From a virus: a DNA stretch of 64,000 bases. The notes beneath the pieces are model-generated. The model was not told the DNA's origin. It did not search any database and saw only the letters and a program-made list of their open reading frames with translations. The translations under genes and the position numbers were made by a program. Where the stretch lies: IMG/VR virus record IMGVR_UViG_3300034137_000024, positions 17,491-81,490 of that record. One strand, written 5' to 3'. Below, one piece after another: positions 9,211-64,000 of the stretch. How positions within the stretch are numbered: position 1 is the first letter of the stretch; every line of letters starts with the position of its first letter.

Positions 9211-9232
9211 GCGGGCTCATACCTCAGACGGT

Positions 9233-9703
9233 CTAAAACGGGATATCTGGGTCGAATTGGTCCTTTTGCTGCTGCGGTTGCGGCGCGGTGCGCTGTGGCG
9301 GCTGCGAACATTGTGGACCTTGCGACTGGCCAGCATTGTTTCCGTCACGACCTTGGCCCTGCGGACTGGTGAGCATTTGCATGGTGCCTTGCATGTCCAC
9401 GACGATCTCGGTGGTGTAACGCTTGACGCCGTCTTTTTCCCACTCCCGAGTCTGCAACTTGCCCTCGATATAGATGCTGGAACCCTTTTTCAGGTACTGG
9501 CCAGCGATCTCGGCGACCTTGCCGAACATGCTCACGCGGTGCCATTCGGTTTTTTCAACCTTCTGACCCGATTGCTTGTCCACCCAGCGCTCGCTGGTTG
9601 CCAAGCTGATATTGGCTACCGCGTTACCGTTAGGTAAGTTGCGCACTTCCGGGTCTTGCCCGAGCGTGCCGACCAAAATCACCTTGTTAACTGAACCTGC
9701 CAT
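9233..9703 (-). CDS. ssb: Single-stranded DNA-binding protein
   Basis: [24 protein letters not shown], acidic DIPF tail. Confidence 0.97.
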
Positions 9704-11284
9704 TTAGTTGCCTCCAGAGGCTTTGGAATGTGTGTCGTAGAAAAATTCTGAGGGCCACGACAACGGCCAACCCTGCTGGGCGGCGACGGCCTCCAGCTGG
9801 GTCAGGGTCATGGCTTCGAGTTCGGTGAGCGAAGGCTCGGGGGGGCGCTTGCGATACTTGTCGCGGGTCCGCTGCTTGGCTTCCCAGGCATTTCGTGCCC
9901 AGCCCGCACTGTAGCCACGCTCGGCGGCGATCTTTTCGAGTTCCGGCAAGGATCGAGCGGTCCGGACCTCTTTCTGTTTCTGGCGCTTCATTGCGGCGAT
10001 CATTTCCGGCGTGATGCGCTCGAGCACCCCGTCCTCTACTTCGATCTTGCGCTGCTTGGCCTCGACGACCTTGCCGCAGTGCGGGCACATCGGCGCCGGC
10101 GCGAACATGCCGAAACAGCCCAGGCATTGCGCGATGTCCACCCGATCGGCGTCGCGTGCTTTCTTCTGGCCTGGCGCCTTCACTTCCCCGTCTTCCAGGG
10201 ACCACTCGCGGTCCTCGTCGGCAAGGCCGTGCTTAAAGGTCAGGCCGCAGTGGTCCAGGACGTAGCAGCAGGTTTTGACGTTGCCAAACGGGTCGGTGTA
10301 TATCCGCAGCCCGCGACCGATCACCTGCAGGTAAGACGACAGGGACATGGTCGGGCGCAGCAGCAGGATGGCGCCAATCGCGGGGCAGTCGACGCCTTCG
10401 ATCAGGATGCCGACAAAGGTGATGACCTTGATTTGCCCGGTTTCCAGCGCCTTGAGCGCCTTGTCCCGGTAGTCGGAGTCGTGCTCGCCGCAGAGCATGA
10501 TCGCCGGTACGCCTGCCGCGTTGAATTCGGCCGCAACATTCGTGGCATGGCCGATGCTGACGCACCAGGCAACTGCCGGCACGCCGTCGCAGATTTTGCG
10601 GTACATCTTGACCGCGTCGCCGGTAATGGTTGGCTTGTCCAGGGCGGCCGCCAGGTCCTGGGTGTTGTAGTCACCTGCCGTCTTGCGCACGCCCGACAGA
10701 TCCAGGCGATTCGCCGGCGCGTAGACCACGGGCCTGACCAGAAACCCACGGTCGATGAGCTGGCTAATAGAGATGCCCTGCACCATCGCGTCGTAGATAC
10801 CGCCGGCCACGCGGCCGAGGGGCTTGTTATCCAGGCGGCAGGGACTGCCCGTCACGCCCAAGACGCGTGCCTTGGGGTAGAAGTCCATGATCTTGCGATA
10901 GGTCGCGGCGGCGGAAAGGTGCGCCTCGTCGATAACGATGAGGTCGGGTACGAATGACATTTTCGCCATTCGCCGAACAACCGTCTGGATCGAGCCGACC
11001 TGAACCCGTGCGCGGAGGTTCGGCGTAAAGCCGGGCATGATGATGCCGTGCGCAACGTCGTAGTCGCGCAGCTTGTGGCTCGCCTGTTTGATCAGCTGGT
11101 CCCGGTGCGCAAGGATCAGGACTTTACTGCCCTTCTCCGCAGCACTGCGGGCGATGTAGCTGAAGATAACCGTCTTGCCAGCGCCCGTCGCCAATACAAT
11201 GAGGACGTAACGCTTGCCCTGCCTGAACTCCATCCGGACGCTTACAACAGCGTCCTCCTGATAGTCCCGTAAAGAAAAAGCCAT
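9704..11284 (-). CDS. SF2 DEAH-box helicase with zinc ribbon
   Basis: ATGAGKT, DEAH, QVIGRGLR, C-terminal CxxC...CPHCG. Confidence 0.92.
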   Translation of the reverse strand: MAFSLRDYQEDAVVSVRMEFRQGKRYVLIVLATGAGKTVIFSYIARSAAEKGSKVLILAHRDQLIKQASHKLRDYDVAHGIIMPGFTPNLRARVQVGSIQTVVRRMAKMSFVPDLIVIDEAHLSAAATYRKIMDFYPKARVLGVTGSPCRLDNKPLGRVAGGIYDAMVQGISISQLIDRGFLVRPVVYAPANRLDLSGVRKTAGDYNTQDLAAALDKPTITGDAVKMYRKICDGVPAVAWCVSIGHATNVAAEFNAAGVPAIMLCGEHDSDYRDKALKALETGQIKVITFVGILIEGVDCPAIGAILLLRPTMSLSSYLQVIGRGLRIYTDPFGNVKTCCYVLDHCGLTFKHGLADEDREWSLEDGEVKAPGQKKARDADRVDIAQCLGCFGMFAPAPMCPHCGKVVEAKQRKIEVEDGVLERITPEMIAAMKRQKQKEVRTARSLPELEKIAAERGYSAGWARNAWEAKQRTRDKYRKRPPEPSLTELEAMTLTQLEAVAAQQGWPLSWPSEFFYDTHSKASGGN

Positions 11285-11325
11285 TGGGTACCGATCGCCA
11301 TGGAATCGGCCCCGCTGGCTCTACA

Positions 11326-11583
11326 TCAGTCGGCGCCGAGTTCTCGTTTTAACTTGTCTTCTTTTGCGGCGACCCACGCAGTCATCTGGTCCAGCTTTGC
11401 GATGGTTGCTGGCACTTCTTCACGCCAACGGTCCGGGGTCGCCCGACCAATCTTGGTGTCACGACAAATGTCCGTGAGGGTCAGGCCCATGCGCTCGGCA
11501 CGGCGCTGGATGTCATCAAGGCGAGCAATAAAGAGCTCGTACATGGAGGGAGGCTGTGGCTGGTTGCGACGGCGGGATGGCAT
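11326..11583 (-). CDS. Cro-like HTH regulator
   Basis: LTLTDICRDTKIGRATPDRW; heads the leftward operon at a divergent AT-rich spacer. Confidence 0.7.
   Translation of the reverse strand: MPSRRRNQPQPPSMYELFIARLDDIQRRAERMGLTLTDICRDTKIGRATPDRWREEVPATIAKLDQMTAWVAAKEDKLKRELGAD
11450..11465 (-). promoter_or_regulatory. Late-type promoter motif GTCGTGAC-AC-CAAGAT inside the Cro-like gene
   Basis: Exact consensus match; points to the helicase/SSB/primase operon. Confidence 0.45.
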
Positions 11584-11752
11584 AAGGGTTATCTCAAACG
11601 GGTGATTTCCCGGGCAGCTTATAGCATCAGGGCATCACCATCCATATTTGAGTAATTACACGATTCATATTTGATCAAAACCAATATTATCCGTTATAGC
11701 CCTAGAAATTACTTGACCGCATAACATTTACGATTAGCATTACACATCATAA
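11584..11752. promoter_or_regulatory. Divergent early control region with two (T/C)CATATTTGA boxes
   Basis: AT-rich; boxes at 11642-11651 and 11665-11674. Confidence 0.65.
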
Positions 11753-12742
11753 ATGAGTAATTACGAAGGGCACCACCGCATGCAAAGCGAGACGCTGCAC
11801 GGCCTGGTTGAGAACACCAACGAGGACTACCACGCGGGTCCAGGCATATCGAAATCCAAGCTGGACACCATCCGTGTCAGCGGCCTGAATTTCTGGGATC
11901 AGTACCTGAACCCCGATCGCGAGGAAAGGGAATACAAACATTGCTTTGCGGTGGGTGACGGCACCCACAAGCTGATCCTCGAGCCCGGCTCGTTCGAGGA
12001 AAGCTATGCGGTTGGCTTCGACAAGTCTGCGTACCCCGATGCCCTCGACACTGTGGCCGACCTGAAAAAAGAGCTGGCAGCCCGAGGCTTGGCTGTTAGC
12101 GGCGCAAAGCCGGAGCTGATCGAACGGCTGATTGAGGAAGGCGAGTATCCCCGCGACAAGGTTCTGGTGCTGCTTGAGCAGGCACACAACAAGGGCATGG
12201 CCGGCAAGACACCAATGCCGGCGGCGGACTACCGGAACATGCTCGCCATGCTTCGAGCGGTCAGCAACCACCACACCGCTGGGGGGCTGATTCGCGGCGC
12301 CTACGCCGAAAAGTCGTTCTACGTGACTGACCCGAACGGCGTCCTGCGTAAGTGCCGCCTCGATCTGTTGACCGCCTGCGGCAATGTTATCGGCGACATC
12401 AAGACCACCGAGGACGTGAGCAAGGAAGGTTTCGGCAAGACCATCGCCCAGCGCCGGTACCACGTACAAGCCGCGTGGTACTTGGACATCCTGAAGATGC
12501 TCTATGGCGATGAGGCCCCGACGCAGTTTGCGTTTATCGCCTGCCAGAAACGGCGCCCGTTCGACGTGGCTGTTCATTTCGCCACCGAAGAACAGATCGC
12601 ACTCGGCCGGATGCTCTATCAGGAAGACCTCGCTCGATTGGCTGAATGCCAGCGCACCGGCATCTGGCACGGCGTCGATGGCGGCAAGGTGATTGCCGCC
12701 GAACTGCCCTACTGGGAAATGCGCCGCCTCGAAGCCGCGTAA
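11753..12742 (+). CDS. RecE/exonuclease VIII-like PD-(D/E)xK nuclease with inserted SAP domain
   Basis: YHAGPGISKS.LD, KCRLD, DIKTT, YHVQAAWY; TVADLKKELAARGLAVSGAKPELIERL. Confidence 0.85.
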   Translation: MSNYEGHHRMQSETLHGLVENTNEDYHAGPGISKSKLDTIRVSGLNFWDQYLNPDREEREYKHCFAVGDGTHKLILEPGSFEESYAVGFDKSAYPDALDTVADLKKELAARGLAVSGAKPELIERLIEEGEYPRDKVLVLLEQAHNKGMAGKTPMPAADYRNMLAMLRAVSNHHTAGGLIRGAYAEKSFYVTDPNGVLRKCRLDLLTACGNVIGDIKTTEDVSKEGFGKTIAQRRYHVQAAWYLDILKMLYGDEAPTQFAFIACQKRRPFDVAVHFATEEQIALGRMLYQEDLARLAECQRTGIWHGVDGGKVIAAELPYWEMRRLEAA

Positions 12743-12801
12743 CCACCACGAATTCCAATTTTGCCCGTCCACAGGGCGGGCGTACGCCACATGAGGCACC
12801 C

Positions 12802-13848
12802 ATGAGCAATTCAGCACTTCAACATTACGAACAGCAGGCGAATCAGGGCCTGTCCCTGCGCGCACCTAATCAACTGGCAAACGGCGTCAACGGCGGCGCC
12901 GTAGCGATCGAGCAGGAACGTGCCATCGCAGAGGCGCAGGGCCAGCTGATCCTCGCCAAGCGCTTCCCACGCGAGATGAACTCGGCCTATGCCGAGCTGA
13001 TGGCTGCTTGTAAGAGCCGCGCCTTTGCCGAAGTGGCTTTCTATGCGGTACCGAATCGGGGCAGCGGCCCGACCATTCGTTTCGCTGAGGAAGTCGCCCG
13101 CGTGTTCGGCAACATGCAGTATGGCCACCGCGAACTCTCCCGCGACGACGGCAAGTCGGAAGTCGAGGTGTACGCCTGGGACATGGAAAAGAACAACCGT
13201 GTCACCCGCCAGATCACCGTCAAGCACGTCCGCGACACCAAAGGCGGTGGCGTTCCGCTGCGAGACGAAGCCGACATCGACAACAAGATCGCCAACGTGG
13301 CCAGCAAGCAGATGCGCGGCCGGATCCTGGCATTGATGCCCAAGTGGTTCGTCGAGGAAGCCGTCCAGGAGTGCAAAAAGACTCTGGCCGGTAATAACGA
13401 CGAGCCTATCGACGTTCGCATCCGCAAGATGACTCAGGTTTTCGCCAAGTTCGGCGTGAAAGTCGAGCACTTGGAGCGCTACCTCGGCCACAAGATGGAC
13501 GAAACCCTGCCCGATGAAATCGCTGAACTGACCGGCGTGTTCAACGCCCTGAAGGATGGCGCCAAAGCGTCTGAATTCTTCGGCAACCTCGACGCAGAGG
13601 CCAAGGCCGAACGCAACGAGCAGGCCGCAGAGGTCGTCGCGCAGGCTTCCAAAGCCGCACCACGCGCACGCCGCAGCGCCGTGGTTACGGACCTGCAGCA
13701 GGCGCGCCAAGAACGCCAGCCTGCCGATCAGCAGCCAGCCCCCGAGCCAGATCCGGCGCCGGAACCTGATCAGGTTGATCAAGCTGACCCAGCACTTGCC
13801 GATGTAGATGATTCGTCTACGAACGGTACCCAACCCGATATATTCTAA
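12802..13848 (+). CDS. Putative single-strand annealing recombinase
   Basis: Directly after the exonuclease; GPTIRFAEEVAR.FGN.QYG; acidic PDIF tail like SSB. Confidence 0.6.
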   Translation: MSNSALQHYEQQANQGLSLRAPNQLANGVNGGAVAIEQERAIAEAQGQLILAKRFPREMNSAYAELMAACKSRAFAEVAFYAVPNRGSGPTIRFAEEVARVFGNMQYGHRELSRDDGKSEVEVYAWDMEKNNRVTRQITVKHVRDTKGGGVPLRDEADIDNKIANVASKQMRGRILALMPKWFVEEAVQECKKTLAGNNDEPIDVRIRKMTQVFAKFGVKVEHLERYLGHKMDETLPDEIAELTGVFNALKDGAKASEFFGNLDAEAKAERNEQAAEVVAQASKAAPRARRSAVVTDLQQARQERQPADQQPAPEPDPAPEPDQVDQADPALADVDDSSTNGTQPDIF

Positions 13849-13908
13849 CCCCCTGTCGCAGGCCTGCCCTGACGGGGGAGGCTTTGGCCCCTACATGGAG
13901 AAACACTG

Positions 13909-14190
13909 ATGTTAAGCAAGAGCAGCATGATCAATGACCTGGCTGAACGTACCGGCGAAAGCAAATCCGCCTGCGAGCGAATGCTGAACGCGCTGGTCGA
14001 GCAGATCACGGAAGAACTCAAGGAAGGCCGAGAGATCACCCTGCACGGCGTTGGCAAGCTACAGCCGGTCGAGCGCGCAGCGCGCAATGGCCGCAATCCG
14101 CAGGACTTGTCGGTTATTCACATCCCGGCCAAGAAGGGCGTGCGCTTCAAGCTGACCAAAGTCCTCGACGACAAGCTCAACGGCCGCTAA
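13909..14190 (+). CDS. HU-family DNA-binding protein
   Basis: ITLHGVGKL...RAARNGRNPQ...IPAK..V.FK. Confidence 0.92.
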   Translation: MLSKSSMINDLAERTGESKSACERMLNALVEQITEELKEGREITLHGVGKLQPVERAARNGRNPQDLSVIHIPAKKGVRFKLTKVLDDKLNGR

Positions 14191-14214
14191 TCGTCCGGGC
14201 AGCACCATTGCGAC

Positions 14215-14239
14215 GAAACCGGCCTTGTGCCGGTTTTTC
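14215..14239 (+). terminator. Rho-independent terminator
   Basis: AAACCGG-ccttgtg-CCGGTTT followed by Ts. Confidence 0.6.
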
Positions 14240-14279
14240 GTTTAAAGTTCAAAGAGGCGAACACGGTGCGGAGACGGCT

Positions 14280-14615
14280 ATGGCAAATGACCAGACGTTG
14301 TACCTCGATCTGAGAGCGGCACGGGCTCGCGTCGACGGCCAGACCCAGTACGGCCACGGTGAATTCACCGATGGAGAGGCTGCGGCGCTTGGCCGGCTGT
14401 TGAAACGTCTGGTCTTCCCCGATTATCGGAGGAATGCGAAAGACGATGCGGAGGCGTATCTGATGGGTTCGGCGATGAGCAAGCTGCGCCACCTGTTAGC
14501 CGACGCAGGAATCACGCAGGGCGCTCTGCTGGGCACGACGACACCTGCACCGGCTCCCCGCCGGCGACTCGGCCCGCCAGGTCAGACCGGCGATCTGTTC
14601 CAGGACTTCAACTGA
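14280..14615 (+). CDS. Hypothetical protein
   Basis: SD-like GGAG upstream; MANDQTLYLDL... Confidence 0.6.
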   Translation: MANDQTLYLDLRAARARVDGQTQYGHGEFTDGEAAALGRLLKRLVFPDYRRNAKDDAEAYLMGSAMSKLRHLLADAGITQGALLGTTTPAPAPRRRLGPPGQTGDLFQDFN

Positions 14616-14655
14616 CCACAACCATTTCGTTCGCAGTGCTCACTGTGCCAGACTA

Positions 14656-14671
14656 CTGTACACCCATACAG
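14656..14671. promoter_or_regulatory. LexA (SOS) box
   Basis: CTGT-ACACCCAT-ACAG matches CTGT-N8-ACAG, 13 nt before ATG 14685. Confidence 0.75.
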
Positions 14672-14684
14672 CTAGGTGCACGCC

Positions 14685-14936
14685 ATGGCCCGCGAACTCC
14701 CCCCGTTTCGACCGATTTTAATAGCCGATCTTCGCAGAATCTGGTCCGAACATCCTGACCCGGATATCCGGCGTTTAACGCTAGAGGTGGAACATTATCG
14801 CCGCATGATGGCTGAGATTGACCGGCTGTACATGACGGTGCATCAGGCTTGGCGCGAGAACGTCGGCGGCAATCTCGTCGCGCTCCATATGCTGCAAACG
14901 GTGCTTTTCAAAGAACGCCAGCGCCTGGCGCGTTGA
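14685..14936 (+). CDS. Small, probably SOS-regulated protein
   Basis: MARELPPFRP...; LexA box upstream. Confidence 0.75.
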   Translation: MARELPPFRPILIADLRRIWSEHPDPDIRRLTLEVEHYRRMMAEIDRLYMTVHQAWRENVGGNLVALHMLQTVLFKERQRLAR

Positions 14937-15212
14937 TGTGACCAAAAAGCGGTATCGCGCACCGCATACGGGTTTTTCGGGAAATTCCGAATAACCCTCC
15001 CCGCCTACCGGATTCTCCGGTAACTGACATGCCGTTACCCTCGGTTCCTCCGCTGGCCAAGACCGCTATAATCTGGCTACAAGCAGTGATGTACATTGCT
15101 CATATTTGATTAACAACCATTGCAATCACTGGGCGTTATAGGGATTATGAAGCAACACGACGAGGCTGGCAGCGTCCAGAAGCTGCGCCCGAAACGACTT
15201 TGAGGAGTCACC

Positions 15213-16379
15213 ATGCCGAAATTGACGAAAACCGCCGTAGACAATGCCCAGCCACCAGCCAGCGGCGACGCCTGGCTCTGGGACAGCGAGCTGGAAGGTT
15301 TCGGCGTGCGAATCATTGCATCGGGCCGCAAGACCTACGTTGTCCGGTACCGAACCAAGGCCGGCAATACCCAGCGCAAAATGACGGTCGCCCGCTGCTC
15401 GGATGTACCGCCAGAGAAGGCTCGCGAACTGGCACGCAAGGTGTTTTCCTTGGTCGCCCAAGGCTTCGACCCGGTAGGCGACAAGCGCATCAAGAAGGAA
15501 TGCCCAACGGTCCAGCAGCTTTGCACGAAGTACATGAAGGAACACGCCAAGCCGTTCAAAAAGAAGCGCAGCGTCGAGCTGGACGAAAAGAACTGGCGCC
15601 TGCACATCCTGCCAGTGCTTGGTGCCGCCGAGGTGGCCGAAGTGAAGCGCTCGGACATTCTCAGCCTGCACGGCAGCCTCGCAGACACACCCGCAACAGC
15701 CAATCAGGTCCTTGCCCTGCTCTCCAAAGCGTTCAACCTTTCCGAGGACTGGGAGTGGCGACCACGCAACTCGAACCCTTGCCACAAAATCAAGAAATAC
15801 GACCTGCAGGAACGCGAAACCATCCTGAGTCTTGCCGACATCAAGCGGCTGTACCAAACGCTGAATGACCTGCTGCAGGAAGGCAAGATTTTGCCCCAGA
15901 TGTACGACTTGATACGCCTGCTGATGCTCACGGGCTGCCGCCTGCGAGAGATCATGAGCGCCAAGCGAAGCTGGGTAGACTTGGAGCGGGCGCTGCTGTT
16001 GCTACCCGACTCCAAGGTGGGCCAGCGCAAAATCTCCCTGCCGGACATTTGCATGACGATCATTGCGGAAATGCCGGACAGCGAATGGCTGATCCCCAAC
16101 CGCACCAACGACGGCCCGCTGGCCGACCCTTACCGCCAATGGAAAGCGATCAAGGTCGCGGCCGGGCTGCCGCTAGAAATGCGGATACACGACCTACGCC
16201 ACACTGCTGGCAGCCTCGCGCATATGGCGGGCATGTCTCAGAAGCAGATCGCGATTCTCCTCGGACACGCCCAGCTTTCTACCACGGCCCGCTACCTGCA
16301 CGGCGCCGCAGGCGACCACGCGGTGGTTGCCACCAAACTGGGGGATGTTATTACCGGGGCTTGGAGCAACGCCGCCTAA
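15213..16379 (+). CDS. int: Tyrosine integrase with N-terminal arm-binding domain
   Basis: WD.ELEGFGVR arm domain; LTGCR..EI, RIHDLRHT, LGH, TTARY; SD GAGGAG. Confidence 0.95.
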   Translation: MPKLTKTAVDNAQPPASGDAWLWDSELEGFGVRIIASGRKTYVVRYRTKAGNTQRKMTVARCSDVPPEKARELARKVFSLVAQGFDPVGDKRIKKECPTVQQLCTKYMKEHAKPFKKKRSVELDEKNWRLHILPVLGAAEVAEVKRSDILSLHGSLADTPATANQVLALLSKAFNLSEDWEWRPRNSNPCHKIKKYDLQERETILSLADIKRLYQTLNDLLQEGKILPQMYDLIRLLMLTGCRLREIMSAKRSWVDLERALLLLPDSKVGQRKISLPDICMTIIAEMPDSEWLIPNRTNDGPLADPYRQWKAIKVAAGLPLEMRIHDLRHTAGSLAHMAGMSQKQIAILLGHAQLSTTARYLHGAAGDHAVVATKLGDVITGAWSNAA

Positions 16380-16395
16380 GTCGTGATGGAAGACT
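16380..16395 (+). promoter_or_regulatory. Late-type promoter motif variant GTCGTGAT-GG-AAGACT
   Basis: One mismatch; intergenic, upstream of the TraR-like gene. Confidence 0.5.
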
Positions 16396-16450
16396 TCGAT
16401 GGATTGGGCGCTGATGTACAGCGCCCTTTTCCATATCGGAGCAAAACACA

Positions 16451-16684
16451 TTGTCGACGGAAGAACAGGCTCAGGTACTTGAGCTCAAAGAATGGGAACG
16501 AATCAACCAGAGTCGCGGAGAGGTGGTGAAGTACTCCCCCGGTGATGAGGGATACGGCCCGGAATATTGCAGCGAAGACGAATGCGGGGTCGAAATGCCG
16601 ACCCCGCGTCGAGAGTGGGGCTTTGCTATTTGCGTGGGCTGTCAGACGCTTGTGGAGCAACAGCAGGCGCAGTATCGGCGCTGA
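16451..16684 (+). CDS. TraR/DksA C4 zinc-finger protein
   Basis: EEQAQ..E..E, C....CG..MP..RR.....CVGCQ; SD GGAG, TTG start. Confidence 0.8.
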   Translation: MSTEEQAQVLELKEWERINQSRGEVVKYSPGDEGYGPEYCSEDECGVEMPTPRREWGFAICVGCQTLVEQQQAQYRR

Positions 16685-16961
16685 TACGGCAGCCAGTGGA
16701 GGCCACCTCCCACGCAATACCGTACTGCTCGGCCTTTTCAAAATCGGAAGCCAGAATCTGGGCCTGTACGGCGTCAGATTCTGGCTTTTCGCCTTTCCCG
16801 AACGCATAAGCAGGCTTGGCCGGCACGACAACACATGGTTCTTTGACCTTGACCTCAACGGTCACTGTCTTGATCGGCTGCACGACCGCCGTGCTCGAGC
16901 AGCCAGACAGCAGGATCGCCAGCACCGCACCGGCACCGACTCCAATCATCAATCGTTTCAT
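16626..16961 (-). CDS. o-spanin lipoprotein (Rz1-like)
   Basis: Lipobox LSGC, Pro-rich, follows the i-spanin. Confidence 0.8.
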   Translation of the reverse strand: MKRLMIGVGAGAVLAILLSGCSSTAVVQPIKTVTVEVKVKEPCVVVPAKPAYAFGKGEKPESDAVQAQILASDFEKAEQYGIAWEVASTGCRISADTAPAVAPQASDSPRK

Positions 16962-17371
16962 CGGCGAAGCTCCCAATAGCTGCTCAAGACCTGTTTACAA
17001 CTGGTGGCCGTCTTGAGCGATTCGCTCAGTTTCATGAGCCGGGACGTGCTCTGCTGGGCCAGCAGCGCGGCTTGGTCTTCGGCGACCTGTTTAGCGGCCT
17101 GCGCCGCTTCCGTCTTTGCTTTAGCAACCTCGACCGCTGTGTTCTGCGTGGCAATGCCAAGCTCCAGCTGGTGCGCGTTGTCCTTGACGGCGCCGATCTG
17201 GACCGTCAGCGCGGAAAGCTGCGATTCGTACAGCGCAGTGCTGCGCCAGGCTTGAACCTTGGCACCAGCGAATGCTGCTGCGAGCAGCACCAGGAGCACG
17301 GCCGCGGCAATGAGGATGTACTTGATCGGGTCCGTCAGGGCCGACAAGTAGGTTTTCAGAATGCTGATCAT
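16958..17371 (-). CDS. i-spanin (Rz-like)
   Basis: N-terminal TM helix then Ala-rich coiled coil, C-terminal Cys. Confidence 0.75.
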   Translation of the reverse strand: MISILKTYLSALTDPIKYILIAAAVLLVLLAAAFAGAKVQAWRSTALYESQLSALTVQIGAVKDNAHQLELGIATQNTAVEVAKAKTEAAQAAKQVAEDQAALLAQQSTSRLMKLSESLKTATSCKQVLSSYWELRR

Positions 17372-17829
17372 TGGGTAATCCAAAGGTGCAGGAAGGGGTA
17401 AGTTGCGGATTCGTTGCGACCGACCAGGTTGTTCTGGAAGCTGATCCGGTTAACAAAGGTGTATTGCCCAGGCGGGAGCGGTGGCACGGTGAAGCCGTAG
17501 CCGGTCTGGGCGCAGCCGCCGTCGATCTGGGACATGCTCACCGGCAAGGGAAAAACGAACCCCTTTGCGCTTTGCAACTCCGGGTAGCTGACCAAGACCT
17601 GGCTGTGGGTCGAGCAGGCTTTCCGATACACCACCGCCAAGTCGCCTGGGCGGAATTCCGATCGCGCCTGGCCCCCACCGTCGAACATGCCGACGTTGTT
17701 GATCGTCAGGGGGTTCCCGCCGGCGATGACCGACCAGCCAATGGCAATCTGGCCCAGGTAGATCGCCACCAGGTACAGAAGCGCCCAGACAAAGGCCCGA
17801 TTGTGCAGGTTCGATCGGAACGTCTTCAT
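17368..17829 (-). CDS. Membrane-anchored periplasmic protein in the lysis cassette
   Basis: N-terminal TM then beta-rich domain with two Cys. Confidence 0.7.
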   Translation of the reverse strand: MKTFRSNLHNRAFVWALLYLVAIYLGQIAIGWSVIAGGNPLTINNVGMFDGGGQARSEFRPGDLAVVYRKACSTHSQVLVSYPELQSAKGFVFPLPVSMSQIDGGCAQTGYGFTVPPLPPGQYTFVNRISFQNNLVGRNESATYPFLHLWITQ

Positions 17830-18047
17830 TTGACGAATACCTTGCTCATAACGGTGCCCAGCACAGAGGCACCCACGGCCGACATCAGTCCGTAAACGAT
17901 CATTTTGATCGGGGCAAACTCGGCCTTAGTGACCAGCAGCTCTATCGTCTTCTGCATGGCTGCCATTTGCTCCTGCAGGCGCACCACCTCCATTTCGGTC
18001 TCGCGCACTACTTCCTCTAGTCGGCGGTTCGGTCGTTCAATTTGCAT
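17826..18047 (-). CDS. Small coiled-coil plus C-terminal TM protein (holin/antiholin candidate)
   Basis: IVYGLMSAVGASVLGTVM TM segment. Confidence 0.65.
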   Translation of the reverse strand: MQIERPNRRLEEVVRETEMEVVRLQEQMAAMQKTIELLVTKAEFAPIKMIVYGLMSAVGASVLGTVMSKVFVK

Positions 18048-18750
18048 CTGGGCTCCCCTTGAAATAGGGCTCGTACTTGAACCGGCGCACCTTCAGGATA
18101 TTGGCGACGTATTCACGGTTGATTTTGAAAAAGGACTGGCCGTAGCCGCGCTGCGCCTTGCGGCTCTTGAGGCTGGTCTGCTCGACGTTGTCGAACCACC
18201 GAGAGGGGTCGCACCCGTCCGTGTTGGCGCATAGGCGACGATCCTGCAGGACGCCTGCCTGGCCGCCGTTGTAAGCCGAAAGGGTGAACGAGAGCCGGTC
18301 CGCAACCGTTGCAGCATCGCGCTGGCGGTCGTACAGGTCTTTGTCCATGACCACGATGGCCAGCAATTGATAACTGGCGTCGTAGCGGCTCGCCCAAGAC
18401 CAGCCGCGGAGGCTTTCGTGCTTCGCCGCCAGAGCGCTGATGGTGTCGAAACGGATCGAGCCGTCCGCTCGGTACGCCCGGGTGAACTGCCCCATGCCCA
18501 CGCCATTTTCCCGACTGGTCTTGAGTTCGGCCCGAGGGTTCCAACACTTCTGGCTGCGCAGGGTTACGCAGGATTCTTGCTCGATCTGGCCCGCCAGGAA
18601 CGAAGGCGTCGGGGCGTCCGGCCAGGTGTTCTGCTGCGCCGTCACCAGGGCAGGTAGGTACTGCTTGGCCCGATCGGGCACTTGGTCAGCAGCGAGCGCC
18701 GCATGTGTGAGGGCTAGCTGCAGCACCAAGGCAGGAAACAGGCGGCGCAT
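18037..18750 (-). CDS. Endolysin, lytic transglycosylase with signal peptide
   Basis: AGQIEQES catalytic Glu, GMGQFT, AYNGG; N-terminal MRRLFPALVLQLALTHAALA. Confidence 0.88.
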   Translation of the reverse strand: MRRLFPALVLQLALTHAALAADQVPDRAKQYLPALVTAQQNTWPDAPTPSFLAGQIEQESCVTLRSQKCWNPRAELKTSRENGVGMGQFTRAYRADGSIRFDTISALAAKHESLRGWSWASRYDASYQLLAIVVMDKDLYDRQRDAATVADRLSFTLSAYNGGQAGVLQDRRLCANTDGCDPSRWFDNVEQTSLKSRKAQRGYGQSFFKINREYVANILKVRRFKYEPYFKGSPDAN

Positions 18751-18751
18751 A

Positions 18752-19072
18752 TCAGGCCTTAGACCAGACGACCATGGCGCAGATAATCACCGCCACGAAC
18801 GCAATCAGGGTGCTGGCCACTAGGCTCGCGGCTACGTTGCCCTTGATCGTTTCGCAGACCAGGGTGGACAGATTGATCTGGGGAAAGACTATCCGGCTCA
18901 CGATCACGGCGACGCCGGCGAGAATCGGGGCGAAGATCAGCCACTGCATCAGGGTCTTGAACATCGCGGGGTCTAGGCCCCACAGCAGGGCGGCCGGGGG
19001 AATGATGAGTAGCCAGCCGGACTTATCGAAAAGTGCCTTGGCCCGTTGCTTCTTGAGTTCGATAGTTTCCAT
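18752..19072 (-). CDS. Putative holin (3 TM)
   Basis: Three hydrophobic helices, first gene of the lysis cassette. Confidence 0.75.
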   Translation of the reverse strand: METIELKKQRAKALFDKSGWLLIIPPAALLWGLDPAMFKTLMQWLIFAPILAGVAVIVSRIVFPQINLSTLVCETIKGNVAASLVASTLIAFVAVIICAMVVWSKA

Positions 19073-19098
19073 GATTCGCTCAAAGTAGATTTCGACGA

Positions 19099-19114
19099 AT
19101 AATGGAGTCACGAC
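19099..19114 (-). promoter_or_regulatory. Late-type promoter GTCGTGAC-TC-CATTAT (lysis operon)
   Basis: Consensus match between a terminator and the holin start. Confidence 0.75.
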
Positions 19115-19135
19115 CCGAGGTGGCCGGGCGCGCAG

Positions 19136-19159
19136 AAAAAAGCCCCCATTGCGGGGGCT
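19136..19159 (-). terminator. Rho-independent terminator (tail operon)
   Basis: AGCCCCC-attgc-GGGGGCT with A-run on + strand. Confidence 0.8.
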
Positions 19160-19166
19160 CTCAAGA

Positions 19167-57306: not shown

Positions 57307-57788
57307 CGTTGTGCCCCAGGCTTGCGACCCAGCAGCACGTCAACAGCATCGTCTACGACTTCAGTCAGGCCGGCCTGCACCTCTTCCTCAGTCATCGCCC
57401 CCTCTTCGAGGTTGATCGAGGCCTCCAGCGCCTGCAGCGCTAGGAAATTGAAATAGGCCTCGGCCGGCGTCGCGTAGTCGGCGACATCCGGCGTCGTTAC
57501 GCGCAGGTAAATGCCCAGGCGGTGCGGGCTGTTCCAAGGCTGGGCGGCATAGCTGCTGTTTTCACCCATGACGATCTGTGCGTTTCGGGCGCACATAGCC
57601 GCGATCCGGGCCGATGAGGCATCGCCATCGCCGTCCTGGTGGAACTTGGCGCGCTCGGTGAACACTGCGCCCAGGAACTCGCGCACCAGGTGGTTTATCA
57701 CCTGGGGGTCGCCCAGGTAGTTATTGGTTTCGATGCCGTCTACGGCGGTCTGGAGGCCGTCGCGGCGGTTTGCTTCAAGATTGTCCAT
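57303..57788 (-). CDS. Acidic hypothetical protein (candidate immunity/partner protein)
   Basis: Overlaps both the kinase-ART gene and the Nudix gene. Confidence 0.65.
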   Translation of the reverse strand: MDNLEANRRDGLQTAVDGIETNNYLGDPQVINHLVREFLGAVFTERAKFHQDGDGDASSARIAAMCARNAQIVMGENSSYAAQPWNSPHRLGIYLRVTTPDVADYATPAEAYFNFLALQALEASINLEEGAMTEEEVQAGLTEVVDDAVDVLLGRKPGAQR

Positions 57789-60700
57789 GTTTCCCCTTGT
57801 TCGCTTCCAGTTCGGAAACGTAGGTCTCGTCGGGTGGCAGCATCAGCACGTCGAGTTCAATTCGTTCCTTACCTTTGTGCGGGTCGAAGACCTTCTGGCA
57901 GGACATAATAACGAACCGCTGCCCGGGCAAGGTTGTGATCTCTTTTTCACTGCTGAAAGACCCCGAACCAAAGCTATCAACGGCCTTTGCCCCCTTCGCG
58001 TAACGAATCCGGATCCGGTCAGCCCCGAAACCCGAGGTGCCATTAGGGACGTACGAGCAGCACATCGAGCCGGGGTTTTGAAACACCGTGCCAGGCTGAG
58101 CCTTGAGCATCTGCTGCTTCATATCCCCCGAGAAGTTGATCCACTTATAAATCTCGAAGCCTTCGGGTTTTTCGGTAGCGAACGAATAAGCATCGAGGAC
58201 CATGCCGGTCGCGTCCCGCCCATCGCTTGTGACCATTAAACCATCACGGAAATTGTCGTTGTAGGACCCTGACGACTGAATCCCATTAATAAATCGCTTT
58301 ACCAGGCGATTCGACGCCAGGCCCGCATAAGCCAGCTTTGCAGACGACCGCATGGCCTCCGTTAACGACGGTGTGCCGACAGGGCTGCTTTGGAAGGCCA
58401 AGGTCTTGCTACCGCCTGCAGGAAGCAGCGCGACCGCCGGTTTGGTGTGGCCCAGGGCGATCCAGAACGCCAAGCGGGAGTTGGCGTGTACCTTGTTGAT
58501 GGTGACGCCGTATTTCGCGCTCTGGAAGGCGTCTGAAACCTTCTTGAGGCCGACAGCCATCACCGATTTAAACGCTTTCAGGCGCTCCGGCGGGTGCGCA
58601 ATGTAGTTCAGCGTCGACACCAAGTCCGACCAATACGCCTTTACATGCTGCGACGGGTGCTGCTCGATATGCTGGCTGCCCGCCGCCTCCCCTGTTTCCT
58701 TGTCCACGGCGTCAAAGTGATAGTCCTTCAAGGCAATCAAGTTGCCTTTGGACGCGAACGCCAATAGATCCTGCTCGGCCTTGAGGTTGGTCTCGTTGAC
58801 GTGCGGTTTCGACGACAGGCCGTTACCGGCACCTTTCCAGTTGTGGAAGTCGTGCGGTTGCGGCAGGTCGCTTGCCTTTACGTCGAGCTTGGTCGGGTCT
58901 GGCTTCGGCTTGGCCTTGGATGCTGCGGCCTTTTTGACAGCCTTGGGGAACTGTTCGAGCAAATTCTCTTTGCGAGCAATCAGCGTCTCCACCAGGTGCG
59001 CTTTTTTCGCCAGGTCACCGGGGCCGTGCTTCATCACCAGGTCGTAAATCTCGTCGTCAGACACCGCGACGACCTTAGCCACCGATGCGGTAATGTCGGC
59101 CTTCGTCAGCTTGCCGAAGACCACCGAGGCCGCATGGTTGATTTTCGGGTCGCGCATGGTGTCGATTTCGGTCACTTGGTTTCCGAAAGCCTTCTTACCG
59201 CCCATGGCGCGATATTCAAGGGCGCCGCCGGCGTCCACGCGCACGGCCTTGCCATTGGCATCCAGCTGCAGGTTGTCGTATTCCAGGCCAACCGCGTCCC
59301 AGTTACCCAACCAGGCGTCGACAGCGAAACCAGCGCTGGTACCGTCTGCCTTTGCCATTTCAGCCGGCGGTGCCTTGGTCACCTCCTCCCATTTGCTGGC
59401 AATACCGATCTGCCCGTTATGGGTAACCAACTTGCAGTTCTGTCCAGTTACCCCTGCTGCAGCGTACAGCTGGGCCGCCAGAACTTCGGACTTGGCCATG
59501 TCCTCGTCCTTGGGAAATTTGCAGTACCAAGCCACGCCATCGGGGTCGACATACTTGCCGCCGGGATTCGAGCCGAGCTGACCGCCGACCTTCGACCAGG
59601 CATCCATCGATGGCGGCTTATCCCCCGCTGGAGCAGCTGGCGCCGTTGGTGCAGCAGCCTTGCCCTTGCCCTTCGGCACAGGACCTACGGCAGCCTTTAG
59701 CGCCTCAACATAGTGATACAGGGCGACGTGCGACCCCTCGGGCATGCTGAGGAAGCCGGTAATTTTTACCGATCCGCCCCCCGGCCTCGGCAAGGTGACA
59801 ATCGTCTTACCTGATTTCTTCATCACCTTTGTGGTGCCGACAAGCGCAGCTGGGCCTTCGGCCTTGACCTTTTGCAGCAGCGTGTGGATGCAGCCAGCGA
59901 CCACCTCGGGCTTTTTGAAATCCGTCAGATGCGGCAACGGCACCTGGGCGACCGCATACATGGCCGCTTCGTGGGGATTATCGACGCCAGGAACCTTGTG
60001 CCAATGGCCGTCTTTGAAAACGAGCATTCCATCGGCGCCCTGTTTCATTTCACCCTCAAGCGGCCCGGCAGGATCCGGTGAAGCTGATGCAGGTTTTTCC
60101 GGTGCAGGGGTGGCGGCAGGGGCAGCAGGGGCAGCGGCCGGGCTTTCTTTCAACGCGGCGATTGCGGCGGCGGCGATCTTCGCCTGCTTCTTTCCGTACG
60201 TGTTGCTGCCAAACTTCATCGCCTCGAGGCCGGCCACGTCGCCGGCGTAAGCCAACGCCTTGATCTTCTCGAGCTTGCCGTTATGGCTCTTGGCGTTGGT
60301 GTTGCTCTCGGGCAGTAGCAGGCCATCCCAAGGCATTTTGTCGAGGTTTACGTGAGAGGGTGACTGGCCGGAACTGGCGGTAACCTTCTCCGGTTCCACA
60401 GCGTTCGGGGCGGGCTCCGGCGCCTTGGCGACAGGCGCCGGGGAGGGCGCAAGCGCCGGAGGTGGGGCGAACTTTTGCGGGTCGAGCTCGGAAAGGGCCT
60501 GCTGCGCGTAGACCTGCGCAGCCGGGGAGTACGTCATGCCATCCACTTCTTTGCCGCTGGCAATGTCATGGATCGAATCGGTCTGGAGCTCCGCGTAGTA
60601 ATGGTTGATGGCGTCCTTTTCGGCCTCCATGGCGTCGCCCGGATCCACGTCGCCGAAGTGCTTGGCGGCCGGGTTCATCGCCGCAACCTTGGCCGGATCG

Positions 60701-61908
60701 TGCGGCAGGTGATCCTCATGACCCCACGCGGCGTAAATCTGGTGGATTGCCGCCTGATGCAGGGCAATCAGCTTTTTCGAGTTCGCCGTCTTCCCCGCCC
60801 AGGTCTGCCCCTTGAGCTTGTGTCCGTCTGCCTTGAGGTCTTCCAGGGATACAGCATCCTGATCATGCGCCAAGTCCAGTATCTGCTGGGCTACCTTCTC
60901 GTAATGAGATTTGACCCCGGTGGTGGTTTTCCCCTCGGCGAAGTCGGGCATTTTCAGGGCGCCGGCAGCCGCAGAACTTTCGGTAACTGCCGGTGGTTCC
61001 CCCGCGTTACCGCTGGAGTTAGCCGCGGATATCTTTGAGGCGACCAAAGCGGCGTGGTGAACCGGAGTGCCTTCGGCGTAGGTGTTGAGGAAGTAGTTAA
61101 ACGCCTCTTTATCACCGTCCTCGATCGCTTCGTCCAGAGCGGCCTGTATCTGGGGCGTCATGTGGCCAACGCTGGTCCCGCCGGTTTTCGACTCGCGGGC
61201 TGAATCGGACGCGGCCACGTCTGCAGGCTTAGCCTCGGCGCCGGGCATTGATGCCAACTGACCGGCCTTCGCCTGTTTCACCGCGTCGAAGTCAGCAGTG
61301 CTGGCGAACTTGGAGAGGTAAATCTGCCCGTACATTTGGGCTGCCGACACGCTGGCCGAGTTCTTGATCTTGTCCAGGAGTTCCAGCGCTTCCGGGTTAG
61401 AACTGGCGGTAACTGCGGGCGGTTCCTTCTGGTTGCCGGCAGGGGAGGCCTTTACAGCGGCGTGTTCGCCAGGCTTTTGCCCGGCCGATACCTGGTGCTG
61501 GCTGCCCATTTTACCCAAGAGGAAGTTAGCCACTGCTGCCTGTTTCTTGCCGTGGGTATTCACGCCGTAGCCGTGACCAAGGATGGCCGTGGCGTCGCCG
61601 TTTTCGCCATGGGCGAGCAGCTTGGGCAAATGAACGTCGTTGAAGGCTGCCATTTCCTTGTTGGTGGCGGCCTTGTCCGTGGGGTACTTGAGCTTGTCGA
61701 TCTGTTCGGCCGACAAGGATATAGGGCTGTGCTTACCACCCGCCTCGGGGTGCGCTGCTTGGGGTGCGCCTTTGGGTGCCGGTTTCTCCTGCTTGATAGC
61801 GTGCCATCTACCCTGCAATAGGTAATAGCCCGCTTGGTGGGCAATTTTTGACTTGATCAGCAACAGAACTCGGGGAGCCGCTGCCGTGGGGGCGGTAGGT
61901 ATATTCAT
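57775..61908 (-). CDS. Polyvalent protein: linker-rich N-terminus, HipA/PI3K-like kinase, C-terminal ADP-ribosyltransferase
   Basis: GSNPGG..WYCK, SEVLA, DAWLGNWD, RVDAG; IYKW, SMCCS, SEKE, LPGQRF. Confidence 0.8.
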   Translation of the reverse strand: MNIPTAPTAAAPRVLLLIKSKIAHQAGYYLLQGRWHAIKQEKPAPKGAPQAAHPEAGGKHSPISLSAEQIDKLKYPTDKAATNKEMAAFNDVHLPKLLAHGENGDATAILGHGYGVNTHGKKQAAVANFLLGKMGSQHQVSAGQKPGEHAAVKASPAGNQKEPPAVTASSNPEALELLDKIKNSASVSAAQMYGQIYLSKFASTADFDAVKQAKAGQLASMPGAEAKPADVAASDSARESKTGGTSVGHMTPQIQAALDEAIEDGDKEAFNYFLNTYAEGTPVHHAALVASKISAANSSGNAGEPPAVTESSAAAGALKMPDFAEGKTTTGVKSHYEKVAQQILDLAHDQDAVSLEDLKADGHKLKGQTWAGKTANSKKLIALHQAAIHQIYAAWGHEDHLPHDPAKVAAMNPAAKHFGDVDPGDAMEAEKDAINHYYAELQTDSIHDIASGKEVDGMTYSPAAQVYAQQALSELDPQKFAPPPALAPSPAPVAKAPEPAPNAVEPEKVTASSGQSPSHVNLDKMPWDGLLLPESNTNAKSHNGKLEKIKALAYAGDVAGLEAMKFGSNTYGKKQAKIAAAAIAALKESPAAAPAAPAATPAPEKPASASPDPAGPLEGEMKQGADGMLVFKDGHWHKVPGVDNPHEAAMYAVAQVPLPHLTDFKKPEVVAGCIHTLLQKVKAEGPAALVGTTKVMKKSGKTIVTLPRPGGGSVKITGFLSMPEGSHVALYHYVEALKAAVGPVPKGKGKAAAPTAPAAPAGDKPPSMDAWSKVGGQLGSNPGGKYVDPDGVAWYCKFPKDEDMAKSEVLAAQLYAAAGVTGQNCKLVTHNGQIGIASKWEEVTKAPPAEMAKADGTSAGFAVDAWLGNWDAVGLEYDNLQLDANGKAVRVDAGGALEYRAMGGKKAFGNQVTEIDTMRDPKINHAASVVFGKLTKADITASVAKVVAVSDDEIYDLVMKHGPGDLAKKAHLVETLIARKENLLEQFPKAVKKAAASKAKPKPDPTKLDVKASDLPQPHDFHNWKGAGNGLSSKPHVNETNLKAEQDLLAFASKGNLIALKDYHFDAVDKETGEAAGSQHIEQHPSQHVKAYWSDLVSTLNYIAHPPERLKAFKSVMAVGLKKVSDAFQSAKYGVTINKVHANSRLAFWIALGHTKPAVALLPAGGSKTLAFQSSPVGTPSLTEAMRSSAKLAYAGLASNRLVKRFINGIQSSGSYNDNFRDGLMVTSDGRDATGMVLDAYSFATEKPEGFEIYKWINFSGDMKQQMLKAQPGTVFQNPGSMCCSYVPNGTSGFGADRIRIRYAKGAKAVDSFGSGSFSSEKEITTLPGQRFVIMSCQKVFDPHKGKERIELDVLMLPPDETYVSELEANKGKHGQS

Positions 61909-61914
61909 GACGCG

Positions 61915-61930
61915 ATTCTTGCGTCACGAC
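61915..61930 (-). promoter_or_regulatory. Late-type promoter GTCGTGAC-GC-AAGAAT (leaderless)
   Basis: ATG 6 nt after the hexamer. Confidence 0.78.
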
Positions 61931-62045
61931 GGGGGCCTCACTGCCGACGCCGCGCCCGTCCCGCGCCCGAAGTTTGGGGAAGTTCGGCGCCGGTACCGCA
62001 GCGTAGGCCCATGGCCGCCTTGGTCGTCAGACTTAGGATCAGATG

Positions 62046-62285
62046 TCAGCGATTCCGGGGGATTTGGTCATCGCAATGCGAGCTGTAGGCGGCGTCAGCC
62101 CACTCTAGCCATTCGCGCAGTTCATCATCCGGAACGATCCCGTGCCGGTTCAACTCGAAGGCGCGGTCCCGAAGGCGCAGATGCCAGCCCCCCAGATCAC
62201 GCTGGCGCCCAAGCTCATCATTGAGTATGGCCTCCCATTCAGCCTGGGCGGCCTCGAAACCTGGATGAAGCTCGATGTCGTTCAC
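62046..62285 (-). CDS. Hypothetical protein
   Basis: SD GAGGAG upstream. Confidence 0.7.
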   Translation of the reverse strand: MNDIELHPGFEAAQAEWEAILNDELGRQRDLGGWHLRLRDRAFELNRHGIVPDDELREWLEWADAAYSSHCDDQIPRNR

Positions 62286-62356
62286 ATGCTATCTCCTCGG
62301 TGGATAGCCATATGACCGTGGCTCCGAACCGCCGTGCGGTTTCTCGGGATCCAACG

Positions 62357-62381
62357 AAAAACCCCGCCAAGGCGGCGGGGT
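62357..62381 (-). terminator. Rho-independent terminator
   Basis: ACCCCGCC-aaggc-GGCGGGGT with A-run on + strand. Confidence 0.7.
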
Positions 62382-62404
62382 AGGGTAGCGGGTGGCCGAA
62401 CCGA

Positions 62405-62788
62405 TCAAGGCTCATCCAGAGCCAGGGCGAATGCCTCCAACGGCGTCGGCAAACCAACAGCCCGGCGCGTCAGCCCGTGATGTTCAACGGCCGACTCCAG
62501 TTCGTTGATCAGCTTGGCAGTGCTGGGCCTTCCGATGAATCCACGCAGCAGCGCTGGCGGGAGCGCGGCACACACCGCCGCCCATGCCCGCGACAGGCGC
62601 CACATACACTCAGGCGGAGCGGAAACCACCAAAACGATGTGCTGAATCCAGCTATCGTCCAACCGAACCACAGTCGGGTTATCCGGGTCCCGGAAAAACC
62701 TAAGACGCTCAGGCATAGCCGACAGCACCAGCGAACGCAGGTGCGGCCAATCAACAACGCACAGGCTGTCCTCTCCCAACCGAGTCAT
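62405..62788 (-). CDS. Hypothetical protein
   Basis: ATGA overlap in operon. Confidence 0.6.
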   Translation of the reverse strand: MTRLGEDSLCVVDWPHLRSLVLSAMPERLRFFRDPDNPTVVRLDDSWIQHIVLVVSAPPECMWRLSRAWAAVCAALPPALLRGFIGRPSTAKLINELESAVEHHGLTRRAVGLPTPLEAFALALDEP

Positions 62789-63018
62789 GCAGCCTCAGCC
62801 TCAAGCGCCGCCGGAGCGGGCAGGGCAAGCACTCGGGCGCCCCGAATTTGGTGAACAGGAGCAGGGGCGTCGATCAATGCCCGGTCGACGTTGATGCGGT
62901 ATGTCGTCGCAAAACGGCGCAGTGGGACGGACTGGGAAGTTTCACGGCGAGAGGCGCGACGTCCAGCGGCATAGCCGAACGCGAAGGTGGTAGCGCAAAT
63001 AGCGGCGGTCAAAATCAT
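62785..63018 (-). CDS. Small membrane protein
   Basis: Hydrophobic N-terminus. Confidence 0.6.
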   Translation of the reverse strand: MILTAAICATTFAFGYAAGRRASRRETSQSVPLRRFATTYRINVDRALIDAPAPVHQIRGARVLALPAPAALEAEAA

Positions 63019-63099
63019 GATGCACTCGCAACGAATTCGAGACAGACAAAAACGGCAGGGTCACGAATGAGCCTGCCGCTTGGTTCCAGCAGCGATGAG

Positions 63100-63411
63100 T
63101 TAAGCGGCTTCGCGACCCATGACCGGATCAAGCTCGATCAAAGCAAGCAGCGCGTTGCGATGGCGGTGTGTCAGGTCGCGGAAACGGGCGATCAATTCGC
63201 GCTCACCGGCCGAAAGCTCGGCGGCGTTGACGTGGGTGCCGGCGCGGCCTTCGTAAGCCAAGGTCCGCTCGATGCGAGCAATGATTTCAGAATTCATGCT
63301 GCGATGGTTTTCCCCCGCAACTTCGGAGATGCGATCGCGCATCCCATTCGGTAAGCGGACGACGAACTTATCGGCACTGCGGCTATTTGTCATTTGGTAT
63401 TGCTGAGACAT
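63100..63411 (-). CDS. amrZ: AmrZ (AlgZ)-like Arc/RHH transcription regulator
   Basis: SRSADKFVVRLP.GMR..I.EVA...HRSMNSEIIAR.E and C-terminal ELS..ERELI.RFR.LTHR..NAL.ALI. Confidence 0.88.
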   Translation of the reverse strand: MSQQYQMTNSRSADKFVVRLPNGMRDRISEVAGENHRSMNSEIIARIERTLAYEGRAGTHVNAAELSAGERELIARFRDLTHRHRNALLALIELDPVMGREAA

Positions 63412-63531
63412 TTTCTCTTTCCTTTCCGTTACGGCCGAAGCCGCGTATTGCTGTGGCGTACATTGGTAGTTTACGGGACCTAAGCGGCGTCTAGCCAGCA
63501 CCTATCGGGGGGAACACCGGGGCTGGTTGGT

Positions 63532-63753
63532 TTAAGCGTTACTGCGAAGTGCGGCGCGCAGTTCGCGGTGGTCCATGTTGCGGATGTCAGTCATCCGGAC
63601 GAAGTACGCCTCCCAAGCGTCCGGCGCTTCGACGATGCTCTCAGCAGGGCGGACTAGACGGGCAAACAGTTCGCGGCGAGCTATGGTGCAGAACACCAGC
63701 AAAGCCTCGCCGGCTTGGTTCGGGTTGTAGCCGTGACGTTCGGTGGTGGCCAT
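63532..63753 (-). CDS. Hypothetical protein
   Basis: SD GGAG upstream. Confidence 0.65.
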   Translation of the reverse strand: MATTERHGYNPNQAGEALLVFCTIARRELFARLVRPAESIVEAPDAWEAYFVRMTDIRNMDHRELRAALRSNA

Positions 63754-63771
63754 GTAGGGCGCTCCGTGGGA

Positions 63772-63990
63772 TCAAAAATTGTAGTCGTGGAACTTGCGAG
63801 GCTTCTCTTCACGGCGGAACTTGCTGCCCTGGTTGTACCAGCGGCCATCCTTGCGCAGGTGCAGGCGGATGACTGCGGCGTCCGGTTGGCTGGTGATGAT
63901 CCATTTCTGGCTGCCCTGATTCGAGCAGTGGCCGGCGAAGCCACCAACGTGAATCTCCGGCCTCCAGTTCGAATCAAGGACCGCGGACAT
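63772..63990 (-). CDS. Hypothetical protein (may extend past the window edge)
   Basis: GGFAGHC.NQ..Q.W, RLRKDGRW, FHDYNF. Confidence 0.65.
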   Translation of the reverse strand: MSAVLDSNWRPEIHVGGFAGHCSNQGSQKWIITSQPDAAVIRLHLRKDGRWYNQGSKFRREEKPRKFHDYNF

Positions 63991-64000
63991 AGCGCGCACT

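Follow-up and report, generated by a model that had tools for sequence, protein, structure and literature searches.

What is a gene for AmrZ, a regulator known from bacterial chromosomes, doing in the genome of a phage? AmrZ (AlgZ) of P. aeruginosa, a protein of 108 aa with a solved structure (PDB 3QOQ), is encoded on the chromosome and exerts global control over the genes for alginate, motility, Psl and c-di-GMP (PMC3325190, PMC3946381). We analysed a stretch of 64,000 nucleotides, referred to as the window, which spans positions 17,491 to 81,490 of the IMG/VR virus record IMGVR_UViG_3300034137_000024. An amrZ-like gene of 103 codons and a stop lies on its minus strand at 63100..63411. Phage-borne look-alikes of AmrZ have already been published: what is unusual about the present one is its full length and its operator. 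The reading we favour, with a probability of roughly 0.6, is that the phage captured the gene for a complete AmrZ-type regulator from a Pseudomonadaceae host and has kept it under selection.

The gene was delimited by its open reading frame and by Pfam, structure and BLASTP matches. The frame opens with an ATG at 63411-63409 and runs on the minus strand to 63100, including the stop codon. An alternative GTG start of the same frame would give a product of 133 aa. We prefer the ATG, because it yields an N-terminal arm of AmrZ length and is preceded by a ribosome-binding site: a purine-rich region, GGAAAGGAAAGAG, read from the sequence at 63415..63427 on the minus strand, places AGGA 8 nt 5′ of the ATG. 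The predicted product is an Arc-type ribbon-helix-helix (RHH) protein. Residues 10-57 match the Pfam family Arc (PF03869, E = 5.7e-21), and the closest solved structure is that of AmrZ (3QOQ, E = 3e-16, residues 7-56), with the solved structures of Arc (about 1e-5) and Mnt (0.013) matching far more weakly. In an AF2 monomer model the RHH helices occupy residues 24-35 and 39-56, followed by a long C-terminal helix at 68-102. The pLDDT is 85-88 across residues 70-90, in a model of low global confidence (pLDDT 68.7, pTM 0.31). The model contains no beta strand, as is expected of the monomer of an obligate dimer.

The likeness to AmrZ was followed residue by residue. The reference P. aeruginosa sequence was taken from GenBank OQ572413.1 ('phage Y12'), which carries the host amrZ locus; residue numbers in the phage protein equal those of AmrZ minus 3. 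Identical positions number 2/12 in the N-terminal arm, 34/54 in the RHH domain and 21/42 in the C-terminal domain. These counts bear out the first-pass annotation, which had held that the match to AmrZ covers both the RHH domain and the C-terminal oligomerisation region. The BLAST comparison with AmrZ that it proposed gives the same picture: residues 9-103 align with an AmrZ-type protein of P. putida (P0012) at 57/99 identities (E = 7e-37), and the alignment covers the C-terminal pattern ELS..EREL..RFR.L.HR..NAL.ALI. AmrZ and the phage protein thus have in common an N-terminal arm with the equivalent of Arg14, the Arc-type RHH and the C-terminal tetramerisation region. They differ in that their identity is only about 53-58%, the linker of the phage protein is 4 residues shorter and its N-terminal arm is not conserved.

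The positions that matter most for AmrZ function are largely retained. Twenty-one chromosomal sequences define 44 invariant columns, and the phage protein keeps 40 of them, 26/28 in the RHH and 14/16 in the C-terminal domain; the four altered columns are A32S, Q56Y, Q91H and Q92R. The base-reading residues Lys18, Val20 and Arg22 (AmrZ numbering) are identical in the alignment, as are Arg14, Arg28 and Asn43 and the dimer-dimer residues His39, Arg40 and Glu51, and H38, which makes a backbone-mediated contact in AmrZ, is replaced by Asn (roles of the DNA-contact and dimer-dimer residues according to PMC3325190). The C-terminal tetramerisation domain of AmrZ comprises residues 67-108 (its role as cited in PMC10146422; Xu et al. 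2016, PMC4769699, as cited in PMC10146422 and PMC13650114). At the level of sequence, the phage protein possesses this domain.

A search of 5.8 billion proteins recovered 829 relatives. The best of them are chromosomal Pseudomonadaceae proteins of 105-108 aa with 55-64% identity over 84-94% of the query, none being closer, and some of these carry the title AmrZ or alginate biosynthesis transcriptional activator. By these alignments, the phage protein is a full-length, diverged homologue of AmrZ, with a likeness far beyond chance. A maximum-likelihood tree of 29 full-length sequences places it with the chromosomal AmrZ of Pseudomonadaceae and a jumbo-phage copy (support 99/98), apart from a group found on approximately 30-43-kb viral contigs. 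Its placement within the AmrZ clade lacks resolution, and its terminal branch is long (1.33 vs a median of 0.083). Together with the four altered invariants, the long branch implies that specificity or the choice of partner may have drifted. The codon usage and GC content of the gene are phage-like (CAI 0.61 vs 0.65 ± 0.06). This agrees with the long branch and points to a gene acquired long ago. In bacterial genomes, full-length relatives are confined to Pseudomonas, Thiopseudomonas, Denitrificimonas and their allies, a distribution that offers the best clue available to the group of the host.

Among 50,697 deposited phage genomes, we detected no genuine phage gene spanning at least 80% of AmrZ. 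One candidate, in OQ572413.1 ('UNVERIFIED Pseudomonas phage Y12'), was rejected. Positions 8870-19166 of this record contain a GntR/UTRA regulator, an ABC transporter, amrZ, a short-chain dehydrogenase, TrmO and a NosR-like gene; these flanks are the chromosomal amrZ neighbourhood of P. aeruginosa, so the stretch is host DNA and its amrZ is not a phage gene. The proteins of PaBG (138 aa) and phi3 (81 aa) have only the RHH in common with ours, their C-termini being unrelated, and the AmrZ look-alikes of several jumbo-phage contigs likewise have unrelated C-termini. Copies with an AmrZ-like C-terminus occur in IMG/VR, in a jumbo phage (54% identity) and on the approximately 30-43-kb contigs (41-49%). 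The proteins on the latter (L004 5989-6267; L003, L009, L018, L020-L022) are 91-93 aa long and have a diverged AmrZ-type C-terminus; on L004, the gene is flanked by an FtsK-like/NinB region and an Rz-like spanin gene. Unlike the PaBG and phi3 copies, the protein described here retains the host C-terminal domain and a host-type operator. With the copies of PaBG, phi3 and JBD68 and with Gp53, it shares a phage-borne AmrZ-like RHH with conserved DNA-contact residues. In being encoded on a mobile element and conserving these residues, it corresponds to the mobile homologues of Pseudomonas phages and plasmids as delimited by Borges et al.

A candidate auto-operator of the amrZ1 type precedes the phage gene. 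The published amrZ1 auto-operator, TGGCAAAACGCC, consists of two GGC half-sites with a 5-bp A/T-rich linker (PMC3325190). We scanned the 300 bp 5′ of amrZ-type genes; the published P. aeruginosa amrZ1 site was recovered as a positive control, and the same scan in other Pseudomonas species returned TGGCTAAACGCC or near variants. The phage candidate, GGTGCTGGCTAGACGCC, is located at 63486..63502 on the minus strand, with its GGC-N5-GCC half-sites at 63486-63496 and TGGCTAGACGCC centred 80 bp 5′ of the ATG. It is one base off GGTGCTGGCTAAACGCC, a promoter element of ten chromosomal amrZ loci. Its flank, GGT(G/A)CTGGC, is common to five further Pseudomonas genomes and P. aeruginosa, and the element is present in 16 chromosomal loci in all (L051-L058, L062, L079, L111-L115 and L036, each 5′ of a chromosomal amrZ). 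When up to two mismatches are allowed, the operator is the sole match to the 17-mer in the 64-kb window, for which 0.01 matches are expected by chance. A local alignment of the phage upstream region with an amrZ promoter of Pseudomonas sp. is identical at 18/20 positions, better than 500/500 shuffles; past about 20 nt, the similarity of phage and chromosomal amrZ promoters is not significant in the shuffle test. We therefore claim an operator, and not the capture of a whole promoter. The phage site and P. aeruginosa amrZ1 are both GGC-N5-GCC with the same left flank, whereas the distance from operator to ATG is 80 bp in the phage and 153-230 bp in the chromosomes. No second operator was found near the phage gene; P. 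aeruginosa amrZ has two.

In the 16 Pseudomonas genomes, the amrZ promoter retains GATAAT(T/A)GGT(G/A)CTGGC-N5-GCCTTTA, the 5-bp linker being variable. The window has just one more GGC-N5-GCC site that combines an A4/T4 linker with a TGGC flank, TGGCTTTTCGCCT at 16783-16795, just downstream of the integrase gene.

The amrZ-like gene appears to form a unit of its own. A hairpin resembling a terminator lies directly 3′ of the stop codon, at 63048..63081 on the minus strand (fold −23.6 kcal/mol, z −2.24): a GC-rich 10-bp stem encloses an inner 3-bp stem and is followed by a U5 run. The pattern scanner missed it, probably on account of its long loop. A second, canonical intrinsic terminator, detected by the terminator scan at 62361..62381 on the minus strand, ends a cluster of small genes before the late ADP-ribosyltransferase operon. 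The late-promoter motif of the phage has 22 matches against 3.4 expected, and none stands ahead of the amrZ-like gene. The copy closest to the gene in the motif scan (61915..61930, minus strand) is downstream of the unit, in front of the large ADP-ribosyltransferase gene; it stands at the head of the late effector operon and so delimits the accessory region. A scan of 61800-64000 yielded no sigma-70 promoter. The AlgU (sigma-22) promoter GAACTT-N15-18-TCTGA is absent 5′ of the phage gene in a scan that is not fully sensitive, since it missed the P. aeruginosa locus too; it was found in the two Pseudomonas sp. loci L051 and L062, the promoters scanned for it, where an AlgU-like GAACTT-N18-TCTGA stands just ahead of the conserved element in both. 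An Rfam search of the flanks found nothing.

Two neighbouring reading frames deserve mention. A 77-aa ORF at 62785-63018 (minus strand), between the amrZ-like gene and a 127-aa ORF, has a codon-position GC of 0.69/0.61/0.61; this pattern is unlike that of the phage genes, and we did not count the ORF as a gene, as it is probably non-coding. The minus-strand frame at 57775-61908 gives a product of 1377 aa for which neither Pfam nor PHROG returned a match; Dolphis and ST4 have homologues that bear the annotation ADP-ribosyltransferase.

The record itself comes from an uncultured virus and is linear, 84,651 bp long and judged 92% complete. It encodes a primase, a helicase, a tail sheath, a major head protein, a portal and a large terminase as well as a tyrosine integrase, which together indicate a myovirus with the means for lysogeny. 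No tRNA genes were found in the window. Among cultured phages, those most closely related to the virus are Aeromonas phage ST4, the P. putida phages Dolphis and Jeremy and Bordetella phage PHB04. A related capsid gene was not found in 3 + 401 Pseudomonas genomes. A search of Dolphis, ST4 and four IMG/VR relatives found no homologue of the amrZ-like gene or of its five neighbours. The region 5′ of the ADP-ribosyltransferase gene is occupied by other accessory genes in the closest IMG/VR relative as well as in Dolphis and ST4: methyltransferases, an AraC regulator, MazEF and small genes of unknown function. The lack of a counterpart in these relatives marks the amrZ-like gene as a lineage-specific accessory gene rather than a core regulator. 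The location also differs from that of AmrZ itself, which occupies a conserved chromosomal locus of the host.

Could the gene simply be the amrZ of the host, left on a piece of host DNA at one end of a provirus record with imprecise boundaries or of a chimeric assembly? The record is linear with the gene about 4 kb from its right end, its last 3 kb bear repeats and have a low coding density, and the GenBank 'phage' record Y12 shows that a host amrZ locus can be deposited as phage sequence. We nevertheless consider this very improbable. The flanking ORFs match phage-only families (phrog_19789 upstream, E = 7e-10; phrog_6137 downstream, E = 7e-5), none of the chromosomal amrZ neighbours is present, and no bacterial genome has a copy of more than 64% identity. 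The phage-like codon usage and GC content described above speak against host DNA as well. Host flanks would find no room in a record of 84.7 kb (92% complete), given that its relatives are longer (88-95 kb). Its left end opens with a phage ParB-methyltransferase; the relatives have a DNA methyltransferase upstream of the accessory region, and the two observations together fit a permuted genome. The gene is thus unlikely to be host DNA. The next question is whether it serves the phage alone. RHH repressors are common among phage regulators, the PHROG matches of the protein are to Arc-like regulators, and the sole clear operator precedes its own gene, all of which would suit a regulator of the Arc/Mnt type that acts on phage promoters only (its own and perhaps that of a neighbour) and resembles AmrZ by shared ancestry and not by mimicry of the host. 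Arc and Mnt of phage P22 (immI) belong to the same Pfam family, have the same fold and bind operator DNA as tetramers, and Mnt also has a C-terminal tetramerisation helix. However, their similarity to the phage protein is slight (E from 1e-5 to 1e-2, against 3e-16 for AmrZ), and the conservation of the phage protein tracks the invariants of chromosomal AmrZ, including those of a C-terminal domain that is of the AmrZ type and not that of the immI repressors. Nor is there an antirepressor gene nearby, as in immI, or any other recognisable partner among the neighbours. The phage genome is not enriched in GGC-N5-GCC sites (63 seen vs 61 ± 8 expected; with an AT-rich linker, 22 vs 21 ± 6), an observation that speaks against widespread control of phage genes by the protein, and a second site is lacking near the gene. 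Its absence from related phages further indicates that it is not a core switch. A purely internal regulator is therefore unlikely in our judgement.

A third explanation, put forward in the first-pass annotation, is that of an early anti-CRISPR transcriptional repressor, which would have been selected to shut down the expression of host type I-F (or other) cas genes. Many soil pseudomonads have no CRISPR-Cas, which weighs against such a function as the reason for keeping the gene. The literature invoked for it is real: Borges et al. (bioRxiv 10.1101/673095) reported that the level of type I-F Csy is reduced by AmrZ and by its homologues from PaBG, phi3 and JBD68, and the conserved DNA-contacting residues by which they recognised such homologues are found in the phage protein. 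In the same work, however, an amrZ deletion was complemented by 5/6 mobile homologues while Csy was lowered by only 3/6. The locus contains no pointer to defence or counter-defence, its neighbours having no family matches, and nothing that we found supports an anti-CRISPR function. The early timing fares no better: the only evidence on timing is the absence of the late-promoter motif, and neither a sigma-70 nor an AlgU promoter was detected. Selection for cas repression as such seems to us improbable. The other role suggested in the first-pass annotation, lysogenic conversion, is plausible, given the tyrosine integrase and a self-contained unit with operator and hairpin in a variable accessory region.

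We return to the captured, complete AmrZ-type regulator. Given the retained DNA-reading residues, both conserved interfaces and the operator, the protein very likely recognises DNA sites of the AmrZ type as an oligomer and is self-repressing. It would bind GGC-N5-GCC as a dimer of dimers or tetramer and, through the upstream operator, repress its own transcription. Since the operator type is common to host amrZ promoters, the phage and host copies should cross-regulate, each protein acting as a repressor on the gene of the other. With both interfaces conserved, mixed oligomers with host AmrZ are possible. The phage protein should also occupy other AmrZ targets, such as the flagellar master regulator and the exopolysaccharide and c-di-GMP genes, and a lysogen or infected cell would thereby be shifted to a state that favours the phage. 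If, and only if, the host has a CRISPR-Cas system under AmrZ control, repression of that system may be among the outputs. Binding to host AmrZ target promoters is the mode of action expected of phage AmrZ-like proteins, for which the homologues of Borges et al. and Gp53 set a precedent: Gp53 of PhiPA1019 binds the fleQ, pslA, amrZ and ftsZ promoters, its targets overlapping those of AmrZ without the two being functionally equivalent (PMC13650114). A further step is conceivable, although we lean against it: phage and host AmrZ may constitute one cross-repressing and possibly hetero-oligomerising circuit, by which the prophage would sense the AmrZ state of the host (sessile or motile, stress) and override it, with defence genes among the outputs.

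Phage copies of AmrZ are a documented route to the reprogramming of Pseudomonas, including its CRISPR-Cas expression. Where such copies are known from deposited phage genomes, they have retained the DNA-binding head alone, whereas the present one also has the oligomerisation tail and a host-type operator. Tail and operator make it possible to test two ideas directly: one is that a phage regulator can plug into the autoregulatory loop of the host, the other that it can mix with the host protein. As a naturally diverged AmrZ (58% identity) that keeps the invariant core, the protein may also be useful for mapping the residues responsible for specificity and tetramer formation.

The right end of the record has a structure of its own. 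The last 3 kb, which are of low coding density and returned no Rfam match, contain two 95-nt direct repeats, 96% identical and 1066 bp apart, just to the right of the window (record positions 82327-82421 and 83393-83487; L049 928-1022 and 1994-2088), together with further repeats of 48-49 nt.
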